A stretch of 4,226 nucleotides of DNA, from IMG/VR virus record IMGVR_UViG_2695420739_000014, positions 1 through 4,226 of that record, one strand, 5' to 3'. This stretch comes from a virus (lineage: Duplodnaviria > Heunggongvirae > Uroviricota > Caudoviricetes). The notes under the pieces are model-generated. The model saw only the letters and a program-made list of their open reading frames with translations. It was not told the origin of the DNA and ran no database searches. Made by a program: the position numbers and the translations under genes. Of this stretch, positions 1 to 4,226 are shown one piece after another. Each line of letters begins with the position of its first letter. The stretch's first letter is position 1.

Positions 1-228
1 CGTGGCTGTCTGGAATATGACGTCAGCGCCACCGACATCACCAGCTCGTTTATGGCTATCCGCAAGAGCATGACCAGCAGCGGACGCAGCGCCACCTATG
101 AGGCCAGCCGCAGCGAGGAAGCCAGCCACGCCGACCTCGCCTGGGCGACCATGCATGCCCTGTTAAATGAGCCACTCACCGCCGGTATCAGCACCCCGCT
201 GACATCCACCATTCTGGAGTTTTACTGA
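1..228 (+). CDS. P: Terminase large (ATPase) subunit, C-terminal 75 codons only; the 5' end lies upstream of the window (P2 gpP-like)
   Basis: Frame 1 is open from base 1 to TGA at 226-228 (translation ends ...ASHADLAWATMHALLNEPLTAGISTPLTSTILEFY*). The stop overlaps the portal ATG as TGATG. Position directly upstream of the portal gene and co-oriented matches the P2 P-Q late operon. Not in the ORF track because it has no long start-to-stop ORF inside the window. Confidence 0.75.
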   Translation, partial: RGCLEYDVSATDITSSFMAIRKSMTSSGRSATYEASRSEEASHADLAWATMHALLNEPLTAGISTPLTSTILEFY

Positions 229-1262
229 TGAGCAAGAAAAAAGGGAAAACACCGCAACCTGCGGTAAAAAAAATGGCCGCCAGCGCCCCGAAAATGGAGG
301 CATTCACCTTTGGTGAGCCGGTGCCGGTGCTCGACCGCCGTGACATTCTGGATTACGTCGAATGTATCAGTAACGGCAGATGGTATGAGCCGCCGGTCAG
401 CTTTACCGGTCTGGCAAAAAGCCTGCGTGCTGCCGTGCATCACAGCTCACCGATTTACGTCAAACGCAATATTCTGGCCTCGACATTTATCCCACATCCG
501 TGGCTTTCCCAGCAGGATTTCAGCCGCTTTGTGCTGGATTTTCTGGTGTTCGGTAATGCGTTTCTGGAAAAGCGTTACAGCACCACCGGCAAGGTCATCA
601 GACTGGAAACCTCACCGGCAAAATATACCCGCCGTGGTGTGGAAGAGGATGTTTACTGGTGGGTGCCGTCCTTCAACGAGCCGACAGCCTTCGCACCCGG
701 CTCCGTGTTTCACCTGCTGGAGCCGGATATTAATCAGGAGCTGTACGGCCTGCCGGAATATCTCAGCGCCCTTAACTCTGCCTGGCTGAATGAGTCAGCC
801 ACGCTGTTCCGCCGCAAGTATTACGAAAACGGCGCTCATGCCGGATACATCATGTACGTCACCGATGCCGTGCAGGATCGCAACGATATCGAAATGCTTC
901 GCGAAAACATGGTTAAGTCGAAAGGCCGCAACAACTTTAAAAACCTGTTTCTCTATGCCCCGCAGGGGAAAGCTGACGGCATTAAAATTATCCCGCTCAG
1001 TGAAGTGGCGACGAAGGACGATTTTTTTAATATCAAAAAAGCCAGTGCCGCAGACCTGCTGGACGCGCACCGCATCCCCTTTCAGTTGATGGGCGGCAAG
1101 CCGGAGAACGTCGGGTCGCTGGGTGATATTGAGAAAGTGGCAAAGGTCTTTGTCCGCAATGAGCTTATCCCGTTACAGGACAGGATTCGGGAAATAAACG
1201 GCTGGCTCGGTCAGGAGGTCATCCGCTTTAAAAACTACTCACTGGACACTGACAACGGCTGA
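228..1262 (+). CDS. Q: Phage portal protein (P2 gpQ-like), 344 aa
   Basis: Complete ORF ATG 228 to TGA 1260-1262. GGAG at 216-219 sits 8 nt upstream of the ATG. The translation (MSKKKGKTPQP...EAFTFGEPVPVLDRRDILDYVECISNGRWYEPP...) is recognisable to me as the P2-family portal; length and position next to the terminase gene and about 170 bp from cos agree with P2. Confidence 0.93.
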   Translation: MSKKKGKTPQPAVKKMAASAPKMEAFTFGEPVPVLDRRDILDYVECISNGRWYEPPVSFTGLAKSLRAAVHHSSPIYVKRNILASTFIPHPWLSQQDFSRFVLDFLVFGNAFLEKRYSTTGKVIRLETSPAKYTRRGVEEDVYWWVPSFNEPTAFAPGSVFHLLEPDINQELYGLPEYLSALNSAWLNESATLFRRKYYENGAHAGYIMYVTDAVQDRNDIEMLRENMVKSKGRNNFKNLFLYAPQGKADGIKIIPLSEVATKDDFFNIKKASAADLLDAHRIPFQLMGGKPENVGSLGDIEKVAKVFVRNELIPLQDRIREINGWLGQEVIRFKNYSLDTDNG

Positions 1263-1267
1263 ACATC

Positions 1268-1289
1268 GCCGCCTGCGGGCGGCTTTTTT
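1268..1289 (+). terminator. Rho-independent terminator downstream of the portal gene
   Basis: Perfect 6-bp GC stem GCCGCC (1268-1273) / GGCGGC (1278-1283), 4-nt loop TGCG, followed directly by TTTTTT (1284-1289), starting 6 nt after the Q stop codon. Confidence 0.8.
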
Positions 1290-1431
1290 ACACCCTGTCA
1301 TCACGCCCTCACACGCTCACCACCGCACAAAACACCCCGCAGACACACCAACGCCTCAACGGGCAGACTAAACGCCGTCACGACGCGCTCAGACGCTGAA
1401 AAAATAAAATCAGCACCACCGCCAGCGCGCA

Positions 1432-1450
1432 GTGCTTTCCCCGCCTCGCC
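1432..1450. other. cos cohesive-end site of a P2-like phage (19 nt)
   Basis: GTGCTTTCCCCGCCTCGCC at 1432-1450 is the reverse complement of GGCGAGGCGGGGAAAGCAC, which I recall as the 19-nt cohesive end of phage P2. It lies in a gene-free gap between the portal gene and the converging replication/cargo genes, as in P2. Confidence 0.85.
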
Positions 1451-1540
1451 CGCCCGCTTCATGGGACGCTTTTAATGCAGGAGCATCAGGAGCCTCGCGC
1501 CGCGCCAGCGCTGGTGCTGACTGGCAAATTCTGAAATAAA

Positions 1541-1558
1541 AAACGAATGCAAATTCAT
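1541..1558 (-). terminator. Weak candidate intrinsic terminator downstream of the DUF2971-like gene
   Basis: On the - strand, 21 nt after the TAG stop: 6-bp AT-rich stem AUGAAU (1558-1553) / AUUCGU (1548-1543) with one G-U pair, loop UUGC, then UUUUUUAUUU. The stem is weak, so this is tentative. Confidence 0.3.
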
Positions 1559-1578
1559 GCACCGTATGTATGCAGAGG

Positions 1579-2397
1579 CTATTTAGACTCAAGTTGGATT
1601 TTATAATTTGTAAAATCAGCTTTTGCTGTCATTATTTCAATGCCATTTTTTTTGGCGAAATTTTCAATAAAAACTCGCATATCTCCGGATAGACGCTCGC
1701 CAATAATTATCGCATCAATGCAACATCCTTGCAGGGGAACTTCGATACCACTCTGATGTTCATAAACAGCCTCAGTATCGAGGAAATGCAAGCTTCTTAC
1801 CTCATCCTCTCGCTCCCAATCAGAATGTTTAACAAGTGCAAAATCAAAATTCACAGACACCGGTTCACCACGAGCCATCTCAAGGAGATATTTATAAAAA
1901 TCAACTCTAGGGGCTTTATCGTCATATGTAACATCAAAAAGTTCAATACCCGACCCCTTCAACCTTTCTCTATTATATGCAAAACATATTCCTTTCATTC
2001 CGTTTCCATAATAACCCCACATCAATCTACTATTATAGTTTTTAGTAAAACTTGCTACTGCAACATTCTTTTGAAACTCGATTAGAAAACCACTAGCAAA
2101 ACCGTCCCCCCACACTTCATCAAAGCGTTGATAAATCTTACCAAGCTCATTTTTATCTAATAGTTCTCGAAGCTCCCTCCCTTCACCTGTAATTTTATCC
2201 AATCTATCTATCAGGGTTGATATATCCGACTTATCGAAATACTTAAGGGATTCTTTATCAAAATGATAAAACATGTCAAATGGGTCATTAAGAATGCTAT
2301 TTTTGGAATGCCAAATAGCATTGTTAACAAGCTCATTTATAGTATTGATGTTATCCCCTCTAAACCTGAAGATATGAGTTGCACTTGAAAGAATCAT
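1579..2397 (-). CDS. DUF2971-like protein (272 aa), AT-rich accessory gene; candidate defence/abortive-infection effector, function unknown
   Basis: ORF from ATG (2397-2395) to TAG (1581-1579). AAGGGG Shine-Dalgarno-like sequence 5 nt upstream of the ATG. Spot counts give about 27-42% GC per 60-nt block against about 60% in the portal gene. Motifs I associate with DUF2971: N-terminal ...AIWHSKNSILNDPFDMF... and central ...LMWGYYGNGMKGICFAY... No Walker A P-loop. Confidence 0.8.
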   Translation of the reverse strand: MILSSATHIFRFRGDNINTINELVNNAIWHSKNSILNDPFDMFYHFDKESLKYFDKSDISTLIDRLDKITGEGRELRELLDKNELGKIYQRFDEVWGDGFASGFLIEFQKNVAVASFTKNYNSRLMWGYYGNGMKGICFAYNRERLKGSGIELFDVTYDDKAPRVDFYKYLLEMARGEPVSVNFDFALVKHSDWEREDEVRSLHFLDTEAVYEHQSGIEVPLQGCCIDAIIIGERLSGDMRVFIENFAKKNGIEIMTAKADFTNYKIQLESK

Positions 2398-2463
2398 TCT
2401 GGCCCCTTTTCAGCCGGTCAAGAAAAGTAAGACTCTAACGCCTCACTCGCTCGTTGTTCAACC

Positions 2464-2498
2464 CCGCCAGCACTGAAAGCAAGTTTCAGCACCAGCGG
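2464..2498. repeat. Imperfect inverted repeat in the intergenic gap upstream of the DUF2971-like gene
   Basis: 15-nt arms CCGCCAGCACTGAAA / TTTCAGCACCAGCGG pair at 11 of 15 positions around a 5-nt spacer GCAAG; the inner 6 bp (CTGAAA/TTTCAG, 2473-2489) are perfect. It sits between the small-ORF stop (2511) and the DUF2971-like start (2397). Confidence 0.4.
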
Positions 2499-2510
2499 TG
2501 TTTGCTATGG

Positions 2511-2741
2511 TCAACGTGGCCGCGGAATTATCGGACCTCTCGCTGGTATGAATGATCCATTTTGCTGATTGCTGATATCACGGAGCTTACCGTAATTATC
2601 CCTGACTATTTCGGCACACCCGACCAGCTCGTCAGGCGTCAGATTTTCGTTAACCATAATCTGCTGTAGACGGTGAACAATAGCCATCAGCTTGATATTT
2701 TTAGTTTTATGTTGCGGTATCTCGCCTGGTATTCTGTGCAT
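2511..2741 (-). CDS. Hypothetical small protein (76 aa from the ATG at 2741; the ORF-track start at 2753 is a GTG)
   Basis: ORF ends at TGA 2513-2511. The ATG at 2741-2739 overlaps the TAA stop (2743-2741) of the upstream gene as TAATG, suggesting translational coupling. No strong Shine-Dalgarno sequence and no family recognised (MHRIPGEIPQHKTKNIKLMAIVHRLQQIMVNENLTPDELVGCAEIVRDNYGKLRDISNQQNGSFIPARGPIIPRPR). Confidence 0.4.
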   Translation of the reverse strand: MHRIPGEIPQHKTKNIKLMAIVHRLQQIMVNENLTPDELVGCAEIVRDNYGKLRDISNQQNGSFIPARGPIIPRPR

Positions 2742-3196
2742 TATCCAAGCCACCCGTTTTGCTGTGCACGCTCCATCTGTTCATCTGAATAGTTCCATGC
2801 TCCATCCGTGGCAACCATTGCCCCGCCAGACATCCCCGTCTCTGGTTCATACATAACAGCAAGGCCGAGCTGATGCATAATTTCATGATTAATTCTGAAT
2901 ACCAGACCACGCTCACTAAGTTCTTTCCAGTTCACAATCTCATATGCGCCTGTATTAAGCAGCTCAATACTTAGCAAGACATAATCTTCCAGCCAGTCTG
3001 ACAGGTCAGTAACATCTGTTATCCGGGCTTCAACCTTTCGCCCCGTATACACACCCTGTACCCATTCATGCAAAATCAACGTGTCCCCGCGCTCATAATT
3101 ACGGTCATTTTTCCGAAACTCTGCGCGTTTCTTTCCTTCCAGCACAAGGTCAAAATATTTGGCGTGCAGCTTTACCTCGTGAATTTTTGCCATCAT
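2741..3196 (-). CDS. DUF3850/ASCH-like (PUA-fold) domain protein with C-terminal HExxH motif, 151 aa
   Basis: Start assigned to ATG 3196-3194, which overlaps the TGA stop of the A-like gene (3195-3193) as ATGA; GGAG lies 5 nt upstream. The ORF-track start at 3229 is a GTG inside the A coding region and is less likely. N-terminal MAKIHEVKLHAKYFDLVLEGKKRAEFRKNDRNYERGDTLILHEW... resembles DUF3850/ASCH domains. HEIMH is encoded at 2887..2873. Stop TAA 2743-2741. Confidence 0.75.
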   Translation of the reverse strand: MMAKIHEVKLHAKYFDLVLEGKKRAEFRKNDRNYERGDTLILHEWVQGVYTGRKVEARITDVTDLSDWLEDYVLLSIELLNTGAYEIVNWKELSERGLVFRINHEIMHQLGLAVMYEPETGMSGGAMVATDGAWNYSDEQMERAQQNGWLG

Positions 3197-4226
3197 TTCC
3201 ACTCCATTACTGTTGAGAATCCCGGCCACTCATCAGCGACCGGATACGTGAATTTTTTCCCGTCATAATTTACGGTCGCGCCACGCGCCAGCGCCTCAAG
3301 CTCCCATCGCTGCGGCCTGATACCGTTCTGAGCAAGGTCAACGCGGATACGGGTAATTTGCATTCTTTCCGACCGGGTCAGTCTGGCCGATGGTGCAATT
3401 TCATGTGGTTTTAACGGGCTTCCGTTTCTCTGCTGACGGTTTGGCGTTCGCAGGTCGTGTTTTAATGCGCCCCTGAGCGCCCTCACGACCTCCGGTTCAT
3501 TCCATTCAATAACACCGTCATCAACCAGATTAAGCACGGCTGCGGCGTGCTCAGAAGGTGTGGGAGCCGGTAACGAAGTATCACCACCGGTGAGCTTTCC
3601 ACAGTTATTGACAGGACTCCGAGGCGCGGCGATGCCGCTTTTTAAAGTCAGAGGCTCAACGACCGGAACTTTCGGCACAATGCGCCAGTCCGTCGTTCTG
3701 GTGATATGAATATGACGCGCGCCGAGATGCGGCGCGTAAATGCCGACCACTCTCTCGACTTCTTCCTCGTACTCGTTAACTTCATCCGACGGACTACGGG
3801 CGACCCTGACAGTCTGACAATCGCGCGGGACATTTGCCCCACCCTGCGCGCTGATATACAACGCAAAATCACCACTGTCTGCGGCGGCGCGTGCAGCCTC
3901 GACGCGCTCGTCAAACTCATCAGCAATGCTGACGCCGCGAGGCAATTTGCGTAGTTCACGGTAAGCCCCCATTGTCGGCAGACCAACCGTTTTAAATTGT
4001 GGGATGCGCCACGTTGACGCCCATGCGGTAACAGCCGCAGCAGTGTCTTTCAGCGGTCTGCCGGTATCGTTATCGAGCTGACCATCCAGTGCATAGCCAT
4101 CGATGTTTTTTGAGATGTATTTCGCGATATACCCCGCAGCACCGCCCTGGTTAAGGTGTTTTGCCTGAAAACGGTTTCGCGCGGCTCCTCTTTCGTCGCC
4201 ATCCTCTTTGAGCGCATAGCGACGCA
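3193..4226 (-). CDS. A: Rolling-circle replication initiator endonuclease (P2 gpA-like), C-terminal ~344 codons; the 5' end lies outside the window
   Basis: The - strand frame is open from the window edge (4224) to TGA 3195-3193; the ORF track shows only the part from the internal ATG at 3972. The translation contains GAAGYIAKYISKNIDG with two tyrosines four residues apart, matching the Y-x-x-K-Y active-site arrangement of P2 A as I recall it. If the first tyrosine is Y450, the implied total length is about 761 aa, the size I recall for P2 A. Confidence 0.85.
   Translation of the reverse strand, partial: RRYALKEDGDERGAARNRFQAKHLNQGGAAGYIAKYISKNIDGYALDGQLDNDTGRPLKDTAAAVTAWASTWRIPQFKTVGLPTMGAYRELRKLPRGVSIADEFDERVEAARAAADSGDFALYISAQGGANVPRDCQTVRVARSPSDEVNEYEEEVERVVGIYAPHLGARHIHITRTTDWRIVPKVPVVEPLTLKSGIAAPRSPVNNCGKLTGGDTSLPAPTPSEHAAAVLNLVDDGVIEWNEPEVVRALRGALKHDLRTPNRQQRNGSPLKPHEIAPSARLTRSERMQITRIRVDLAQNGIRPQRWELEALARGATVNYDGKKFTYPVADEWPGFSTVMEWK
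3608..3627 (-). other. Candidate replication origin / A-protein nick site inside the A coding region
   Basis: The - strand reads GCGCCTCGGAGTCCTGTCAA. The P2 ori is known to lie within gene A; I recall the nick-site sequence only approximately, so this is tentative. It is flanked on the + strand by a GC hairpin GCGGC-GAT-GCCGC (3626-3638) followed by TTTTT. Confidence 0.35.

Follow-up and report, generated by a model that had tools for sequence, protein, structure and literature searches.

This account concerns a small gene at one end of a P2-like phage genome and a five-residue motif in its product that invited a more exciting reading than it deserves. The stretch of DNA (positions 1 to 4226 of the IMG/VR record IMGVR_UViG_2695420739_000014, all 4226 bp of which we call the window) is, from the gene assignments across it, the cos-proximal end of a P2-like (Peduovirus) genome. 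The gene, our target, is an open reading frame (ORF) of 151 codons on the minus strand, next to the replication initiator gene A. An earlier note on this DNA had seen in its product an ASCH/DUF3850-like N terminus and, near the C terminus, an HExxH motif that resembled a minimal zincin site, and had remarked on how unusual such a pairing would be. The pairing of a PUA domain with a possible metalloprotease dissolves on inspection. What is left is a catalogued phage protein of two domains, DUF3850 and DUF7415, with a chance HExxH: a lineage-specific coincidence and not a zinc-protease site, on the twin grounds that the motif is not conserved in its family and that the domain bears no likeness to a zincin fold. 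The explanation we favor, with rather more belief than doubt, is that the target is a nucleic-acid-binding early accessory protein whose DUF7415 module would serve as an adaptor.

The motif itself is in the sequence, as the note had it: HEIMH, then QLGL, then two glutamates, E117 and E119, which stand 9 and 11 residues past H108. Its residue numbers (H115, E116 and H119) did not last, as they count from a GTG at 3229; from the ATG start the motif spans residues 104 to 108. The note had also cautioned that HExxH on its own is common by chance, and so it is. The motif appeared in 1.4% of shuffles of the target and is expected in about 0.4% of generic 151-residue proteins, which makes it rare for one protein and common across a genome-wide scan, where it should arise many times. 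A zincin metallohydrolase would have H104 and H108 bind zinc, E105 act as the base and a downstream glutamate supply the third ligand, with the ASCH domain targeting the enzyme. Close relatives lend the idea some comfort. In two-domain proteins 49 to 97% identical to the target, the stretch FRINHEIxHxLGLA is invariant and HExxH is strictly kept down to 49% identity; an acidic residue at 117 persists in the close clade; HExxH recurs in some other DUF7415 subgroups; and the helix that holds both histidines is predicted with confidence and presents them on one face.

The wider family is less kind. A search with the last 72 residues of the target, run on 1.84 billion 50%-identity representatives, gave 196 matches at an expectation (E) value of 0.001 or less, so the DUF7415 family is a small one; the residue counts that follow come from the best 150 of these 196 representatives, aligned. 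Position 104 is Arg in 57, Lys in 24, Thr in 18, His in 17, Asn in 12 and Ala in 4, with the rest scattered, and is basic (Arg, Lys or His) in 98, about two-thirds. An independent sample of 80 IMG/VR loci, reduced to 35 that are non-redundant, gave His in 7, Arg in 12, Asn in 5, Ala in 3 and other residues besides. A first histidine that is swapped for Arg, Lys, Thr or Ala is not a zinc ligand, which would not tolerate such exchange. What the family does conserve is a different set of residues: N103 (148/150), E105 (125/150), H108 (145/150), S123 (145/150) and D131 (131/150). The downstream glutamates vary too, with Glu at 117 in 21 of the 150 and at 119 in 70, and E119 is Leu or Thr even in relatives that are 50 to 57% identical. 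As for a third ligand, zincins (MEROPS clan MA) take it from a His at +6 in HExxHxxGxxH, from a Glu some 20 or more residues on in a later helix, or from an Asp in GTxDxxYG. The sequence that follows the motif here, QLGLAVMYEPETG, has no His at +6; nor is there a later-helix Glu of the metzincin and gluzincin kind, and no third ligand was found at any position typical of a zincin family. E117 and E119, the candidates 9 to 11 residues off, fall in a predicted β-hairpin.

Structure prediction tells the same tale. The C-terminal part of the target matches Pfam PF24187 (DUF7415; E 1.9e-14, 54 bits against a cutoff of 27), and the core residues of that family (G97, L98, I102, N103, E105, H108, G111, A113 and S123) are all present; the family core reads RINxE[IV][LM]HPLGLA...G.S.G...DG.W.Y. 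Residues 80 to 151 modeled alone, from a 74-sequence alignment, gave a predicted local distance difference test score (pLDDT) of 94.2 and a predicted template modeling score (pTM) of 0.79, so the disordered or variable C terminus that the note had allowed for proved instead to be an ordered, conserved domain. In the model, helices at 90–95 and 98–110 (the second, of 13 residues, carries the motif) lead into a β-hairpin (112–117 and 122–128) and a final helix at 138–146: a phage-specific module of about 55 residues, helix-helix-hairpin-helix. The note had proposed looking for a zincin-like helix pair, and none emerged; the model has neither the β-sheet subdomain nor the second ligand-bearing helix of a zincin fold. 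With gluzincins, metzincins and minigluzincins, the target shares only a five-residue HExxH on a helix, and zincins have a larger domain and a conserved first His, whereas DUF7415 has neither. Foldseek of the C-terminal model against the whole of the Protein Data Bank (PDB) returned a best E of 1.1, with no peptidase in the top 50, and PDB sequences searched with a profile of the DUF7415 alignment yielded one irrelevant match (E 1.3).

If the helix is not built around a metal, it may be built to bind something. Its hydrophobic residues L98, I102, I106 and L110 follow an i/i+4 spacing, and by that periodicity, rather than from coordinates, F100, R101, residue 104, E105 and H108 would lie on the exposed face. 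An exposed position 104 in the company of R101, E105 and H108 suggests that the face is a charged binding surface rather than a metal site. The two-domain protein is an already catalogued family of uncharacterized function (phrog_1812; 'DUF3850 domain-containing protein' in RefSeq), and phrog_1812 matches the target over its full length with an E of 8e-83, residues 2–150 on profile positions 1–150. Other members of PF24187 (PHROGs 3954, 33705 and 2502) are stand-alone or fused phage proteins that share the full DUF7415 core with the target, which differs from most of them in its fusion to DUF3850 and in having a His at the variable 'x' of the core, the substitution that makes an HExxH. A literature search found no paper on DUF7415.

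The N-terminal half held no surprises. The note's ASCH/DUF3850 PUA-like assignment is confirmed by Pfam PF12961 (DUF3850, residues 5–77; E 6.6e-18, 65.1 bits against a cutoff of 22.9) and PF04266 (ASCH, residues 9–74; E 7.9e-11, 43 bits against 21.2). GxKxxExR, which the target fits, is reportedly the ASCH signature (Iyer, Burroughs and Aravind are said to have described it in 2006), and its K23 and R28 are invariant in our alignment of relatives. An AlphaFold2 model of the full-length protein (53-sequence alignment; pLDDT 87.8) aligned by Foldseek to PDB entry 3IUW with an E of 2.5e-8, a template modeling (TM) score of 0.90 (Foldseek target normalization) and a root mean square deviation of 1.4 Å over 81 columns at 40% identity; PDB sequences, searched by profile, led to the same entry (E 2.8e-13). 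The N-terminal part is thus a PUA-like β-barrel of the ASCH/DUF3850 type. 3IUW, the 'activating signal cointegrator' of Enterococcus faecalis, is likewise a DUF3850/ASCH barrel with GxKxxExR but, unlike the target, is a stand-alone domain of 80 residues with no DUF7415. YqfB, the N4-acetylcytidine (ac4C) amidohydrolase of Escherichia coli, and ZmASCH, both also devoid of DUF7415, match weakly (E 0.03–0.07 with Foldseek), so their enzymatic activities are not transferable to the target. Our literature search found no biochemical data for any DUF3850 member; papers on DUF3850 give domain-fusion statistics only.

As to where the gene sits, the note had its reading frame, the overlap of its start with the stop of A and the GGAG upstream all correct. 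The target ATG (3196–3194) shares an ATGA with the TGA of gene A (3195–3193), and the protein begins MMAKIHE, its second ATG lying at 3193–3191. The longer form from the GTG at 3229 (162 residues) we rejected in favor of the ATG at 3196, on the strength of the P2 annotation and of the way the PHROG profile aligns. Annotations of P2, vB_YpM_50, P24A7b and P37 show this ATGA junction as well. At the other end of the gene the pattern repeats, with the ATG of a 76-codon ORF (2741–2739) overlapping the target stop as TAATG, and an equivalent of this ORF is annotated in phage P37. A, the target and, as third member, the 76-codon ORF therefore form a chain of overlaps, which suggests that translation is coupled from gene to gene along the early replication transcript. 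Co-translation with the initiator, which the note had supposed, fits this arrangement, and the target is probably coupled to A. A promoter scan of the region found weak consensus matches at most.

The closest well-known relative is Orf91 of P2 itself. Orf91 (NP_046796.1, 'DUF3850 domain-containing protein') has 109 residues; its start, at 30316, overlaps the A stop (30319), and like the target it comes directly after A with the same ATGA. Over residues 1–75 the two proteins are identical at 73 of 75 positions (97%); beyond that there is no similarity. The note had raised full-length alignment with Orf91 as a possibility, and the first 75 residues bear it out, but residues 76–151 of the target have no counterpart and Orf91 has no DUF7415. 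(It ends instead in an unrelated tail of 34 residues in P2, NC_001895, the breakpoint corresponding to about 2971 in the window.) The break after codon 75 coincides with the DUF3850/DUF7415 junction and lies beside the P2 tin/old cassette, and since similarity stops there, the A-proximal recombination boundary of that cassette falls inside the gene. Judged from sequence, the target is the full-length form of P2 orf91, and the P2 copy has lost DUF7415. The form that everyone would look up as the reference is, by this comparison, a truncated or recombined version of a commoner gene.

Commoner it is. Of 5426 complete E. coli genomes, 380 contain the gene (384 places). RefSeq labels it 'DUF3850 domain-containing protein' and the gene beside it 'replication endonuclease', and 346 of the 380 matches cover at least 80% of the target gene. 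The C-terminal extension, whose distribution the note had wanted surveyed, is accordingly present in most E. coli copies but missing from P2 Orf91. The gene A fragment of the window is found in 1712 E. coli genomes (2007 places); of the P2-type A loci in that species, about a fifth have the target gene. It is absent from vB_YpM_22, pro483 and phage 899, where A runs straight into other cargo; in P24A7b, P37, vB_YpM_50 and P2 it is paired with unrelated downstream genes. It does not belong to the core and lies, as an accessory gene, on the A side of the gpA-gpQ region, at its edge. The A-to-Q stretch is a known variable 'hotspot' of P2-like prophages, in which cassettes carry accessory genes (Rousset et al. 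2022, PMC9122126), and the A-proximal boundary of this hotspot can fall inside the target gene at its domain junction. The function of P2 orf91 is listed as 'unknown' in the literature. One preprint calls orf91 an 'essential protein' in a methods sentence and without evidence; with so many Peduoviruses lacking the gene, we have not relied on that label.

DUF7415 is by no means confined to this protein. Among the best 150 representatives, which have a median length of 121.5 residues, it spans nearly the whole protein in 27 (starting within 25 residues of the N terminus and ending within 25 of the C terminus). A Pfam scan of the 67 longer representatives found fusions to a MazG-like dATP/dGTP pyrophosphohydrolase (3), an Rv2179c-like 3'-5' exonuclease (1), thymidylate kinase (1), DUF3850 (1), a ClpX-type zinc finger and others. 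The 35 viral loci, most of them on contigs as long as a P2-like genome (about 30 kilobases), show fusions to DUF3850 (5), DUF5405 (3), exonuclease (2) and Lar (1). As for neighbors, a GPA-type initiator lies upstream in 10 of these loci and a Toprim primase in 2; downstream lie GPA in 4 and a Dam methylase in 8. One context runs Toprim primase, DUF7415, Dam; another, in a 186-like prophage, DksA-like, DUF7415, Dam, GPA; elsewhere DUF7415 follows a C5 methylase or a helicase. (An 858-residue gene in locus L006 was considered as an A homolog and rejected, BLASTP against the A fragment of the window having found no similarity, and L006 is left out of the count of loci adjoining A.) DUF5405 is the family under which the reference record files Orf83 of P2, whose gene immediately precedes A. 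In loci L050, L074, L087 (about 3716–4192) and L045, a DUF5405 protein ends in DUF7415, and its gene lies immediately upstream of the GPA gene and overlaps it. With DUF5405–DUF7415 upstream of GPA, both of the genes that flank A can carry the module.

DUF7415 is, in short, a portable module of phages that is repeatedly joined to enzymes of nucleic acids or nucleotides and is placed with a bias toward both flanks of the replication initiator and toward Dam methylases. It has other homes. In six or seven of the 35 loci, a stand-alone copy of 62–74 residues lies within P2-like late operons, between gene L for head completion and tail gene X (loci L046, L055, L058, L070, L072, L084 and L090 are examples, at about 3990–4200, with Phage_GPL upstream in 7 and Phage_tail_X downstream in 6). 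Klebsiella T4-like phages (vB_Kpn_K65_evo1, 3477–3710, and relatives) have a small DUF7415 gene between nrdD and nrdG that overlaps both. In phage Miller the module is beside a Nudix gene, and in T5-like phages it is in the early region. Given the bias toward replication genes and Dam and the lack of a fold relative, so small, widespread and structurally unmatched a module would reasonably repay work on its structure and its interactions.

How might all this fit together? In our preferred account, the target would be translated from the early replication transcript, coupled to A, with the 76-codon ORF coupled in like manner to the target stop. Of its two modules, each well folded and independent of the other, the ASCH module, by family precedent, would use the cleft with GxKxxExR to bind nucleic acid, a nucleoside or a modified base. 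DUF7415 would be a portable adaptor for a partner or ligand, one that phages may append to, or place beside, replication-linked enzymes of nucleic acids and nucleotides; in the target, it would tether or regulate the nucleic-acid-binding ASCH domain during phage DNA replication. Several points weigh against this account. Our literature search turned up no experiment on DUF3850, DUF7415 or P2 orf91, and an adaptor role would demand a partner. The replication link is not universal: the stand-alone copies between L and X make up a second, late-expressed location outside the replication-linked picture, and in lytic phages DUF7415 sits in early or nucleotide-metabolism regions. The pTM of the full-length model is only 0.62. 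And the conserved N103, E105, H108, S123 and D131 could equally well belong to a catalytic or metal site.

That last point opens onto a more adventurous proposal, which we would put at about one chance in five: that DUF7415 has a small fold of a new kind, without relatives among solved structures, that its polar set, together with the mostly basic position 104, is a real site for a ligand, metal or substrate, and that the whole is an unrecognized module with a part in anti-restriction, nucleotide supply or the replication of phage DNA. If true, the polar site would define a functional module that has gone unnoticed, one that P2-like phages place on either side of the initiator, fused to an Orf91-type DUF3850 or to DUF5405, or beside Dam, and that lytic phages attach to enzymes that handle deoxynucleoside triphosphates.

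A shade less probable, to our minds, is that the target is an early counter-defense factor (anti-restriction, for instance), its ASCH domain reading or masking modified or unmodified bases while DUF7415 engages a host defense protein. The gene does sit in the gpA-gpQ hotspot, present or absent among near-identical phages; the orphan Dam genes downstream in 8 of the 35 loci, the copy after a C5 methylase and the one fused to the restriction-alleviation protein Lar are the company such a factor might keep, and expression early in a lytic operon would suit it. The authors of a survey of the ParB fold have also speculated that phage ParB–DUF3850 fusions have an anti-defense role. All of this is contextual, however, and adjacency to Dam may simply reflect shared residence in the replication module. 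The target matched no known anti-defense family, and stand-alone copies between late genes do not fit an early role.

Somewhat more doubtful still is that DUF7415 is a small non-zincin domain, enzymatic or binding a metal or ligand, that acts through N103, E105, H108, S123 and D131 on a nucleotide or nucleic-acid substrate, with residue 104 contacting phosphate. That a polar set should be near-invariant in so small a domain, and that position 104 should so often be basic, would make sense, as would the partners and neighbors (MazG-like pyrophosphohydrolase, thymidylate kinase, exonuclease, nrdD/nrdG and Nudix). Yet a domain of some 55 residues leaves little room for a self-sufficient active site, the conservation of polar residues in very small domains often has structural reasons, and the PDB searches found no fold relative to hint at the chemistry.

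We hold out little hope for the idea that the target is anti-phage defense cargo of the prophage, working with the 272-codon DUF2971 gene downstream. The two share the hotspot, which is known for its accessory cassettes, and the product of the 272-codon gene matches a candidate defense family in PADLOC, PDC-S31 (E 5.8e-33), as well as phrog_1762. A search of PADLOC-DB 2.0 at E ≤ 0.01 gave no match for the target or the 76-codon ORF, only for the 272-codon gene; the target is probably coupled to A, with no obvious promoter of its own; and its pairing with unrelated cargo in the four phages named above means that it is not tied to PDC-S31. On the same ground (the pair of target and 76-codon ORF occurs with unrelated cargo) we rejected that pair as a functional part of the PDC-S31 cargo. 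The least credible reading of all is the minimal zincin, with its first histidine so freely exchanged, its glutamates so variable and its domain so small and so unlike a peptidase.

The features of the window as a whole are collected in Table 1. Megablast of the window matched 127 phage records, the best being Yersinia and Escherichia Peduoviruses at 96–97% identity. NCBIfam had no family for any of four genes. Gene A is intact and runs off the end of the window, its frame open from 3193 onward; the ORF listing gave it as 259 residues from an internal ATG at 3972.

Table 1. Features of the 4226-bp window, with positions counted from its first nucleotide.
Feature	Position	Strand	Basis
End of terminase gene P	52–228	+	
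Portal gene Q	228–1262	+	
cos gap, presumed region, after Q	1263–1578		
272-residue DUF2971 gene	1579–2397	−	
76-residue ORF, phrog_11386	2511–2741	−	PHROG match
Target ORF, 151 residues, DUF3850 + DUF7415; stop TAA 2743–2741	2741–3196	−	
DUF7415 domain, conserved core to Y136 (Pfam match, residues 87–129)	2789–2938	−	PF24187; column conservation; models
HEIMH, residues 104–108; E105 and H108 alone conserved in the family	2873–2887	−	Column counts
DUF3850/ASCH (PUA-like) domain, residues 5–77	2966–3184	−	Pfam, Foldseek, PDB profile search
GKKRAEFR, residues 21–28, fits GxKxxExR	3113–3136	−	Regular-expression match
Replication initiator gene A (rolling-circle nickase), 3' 343 codons	3193–4226	−	phrog_91 'nicking at origin of replication', E 9e-81; annotation of near-identical phages
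ATGA, overlap of target ATG and gene A stop TGA	3193–3196	−	
GGAG, Shine-Dalgarno-like tetramer, 5 nucleotides before the ATG, inside the end of gene A	3202–3205	−	

A few smaller observations complete the map. The first 47 or so residues of the 76-codon ORF are homologous (E 9e-8) to the N terminus of P0063, a protein of 188 residues that ends in DUF7415 (its upstream neighbor is the 858-residue gene mentioned above), so small modules shuffle among adjacent genes; homology with several other Peduoviruses stops near 2590, inside the same ORF. The variable cargo that this phage carries in the gpA-gpQ hotspot is the 272-codon DUF2971 gene, and the best phage matches break exactly around it. Finally, a G+C-rich, terminator-like hairpin followed by a T-run (1266–1283, plus strand) comes directly after the stop of Q, at the edge of the presumed cos region.

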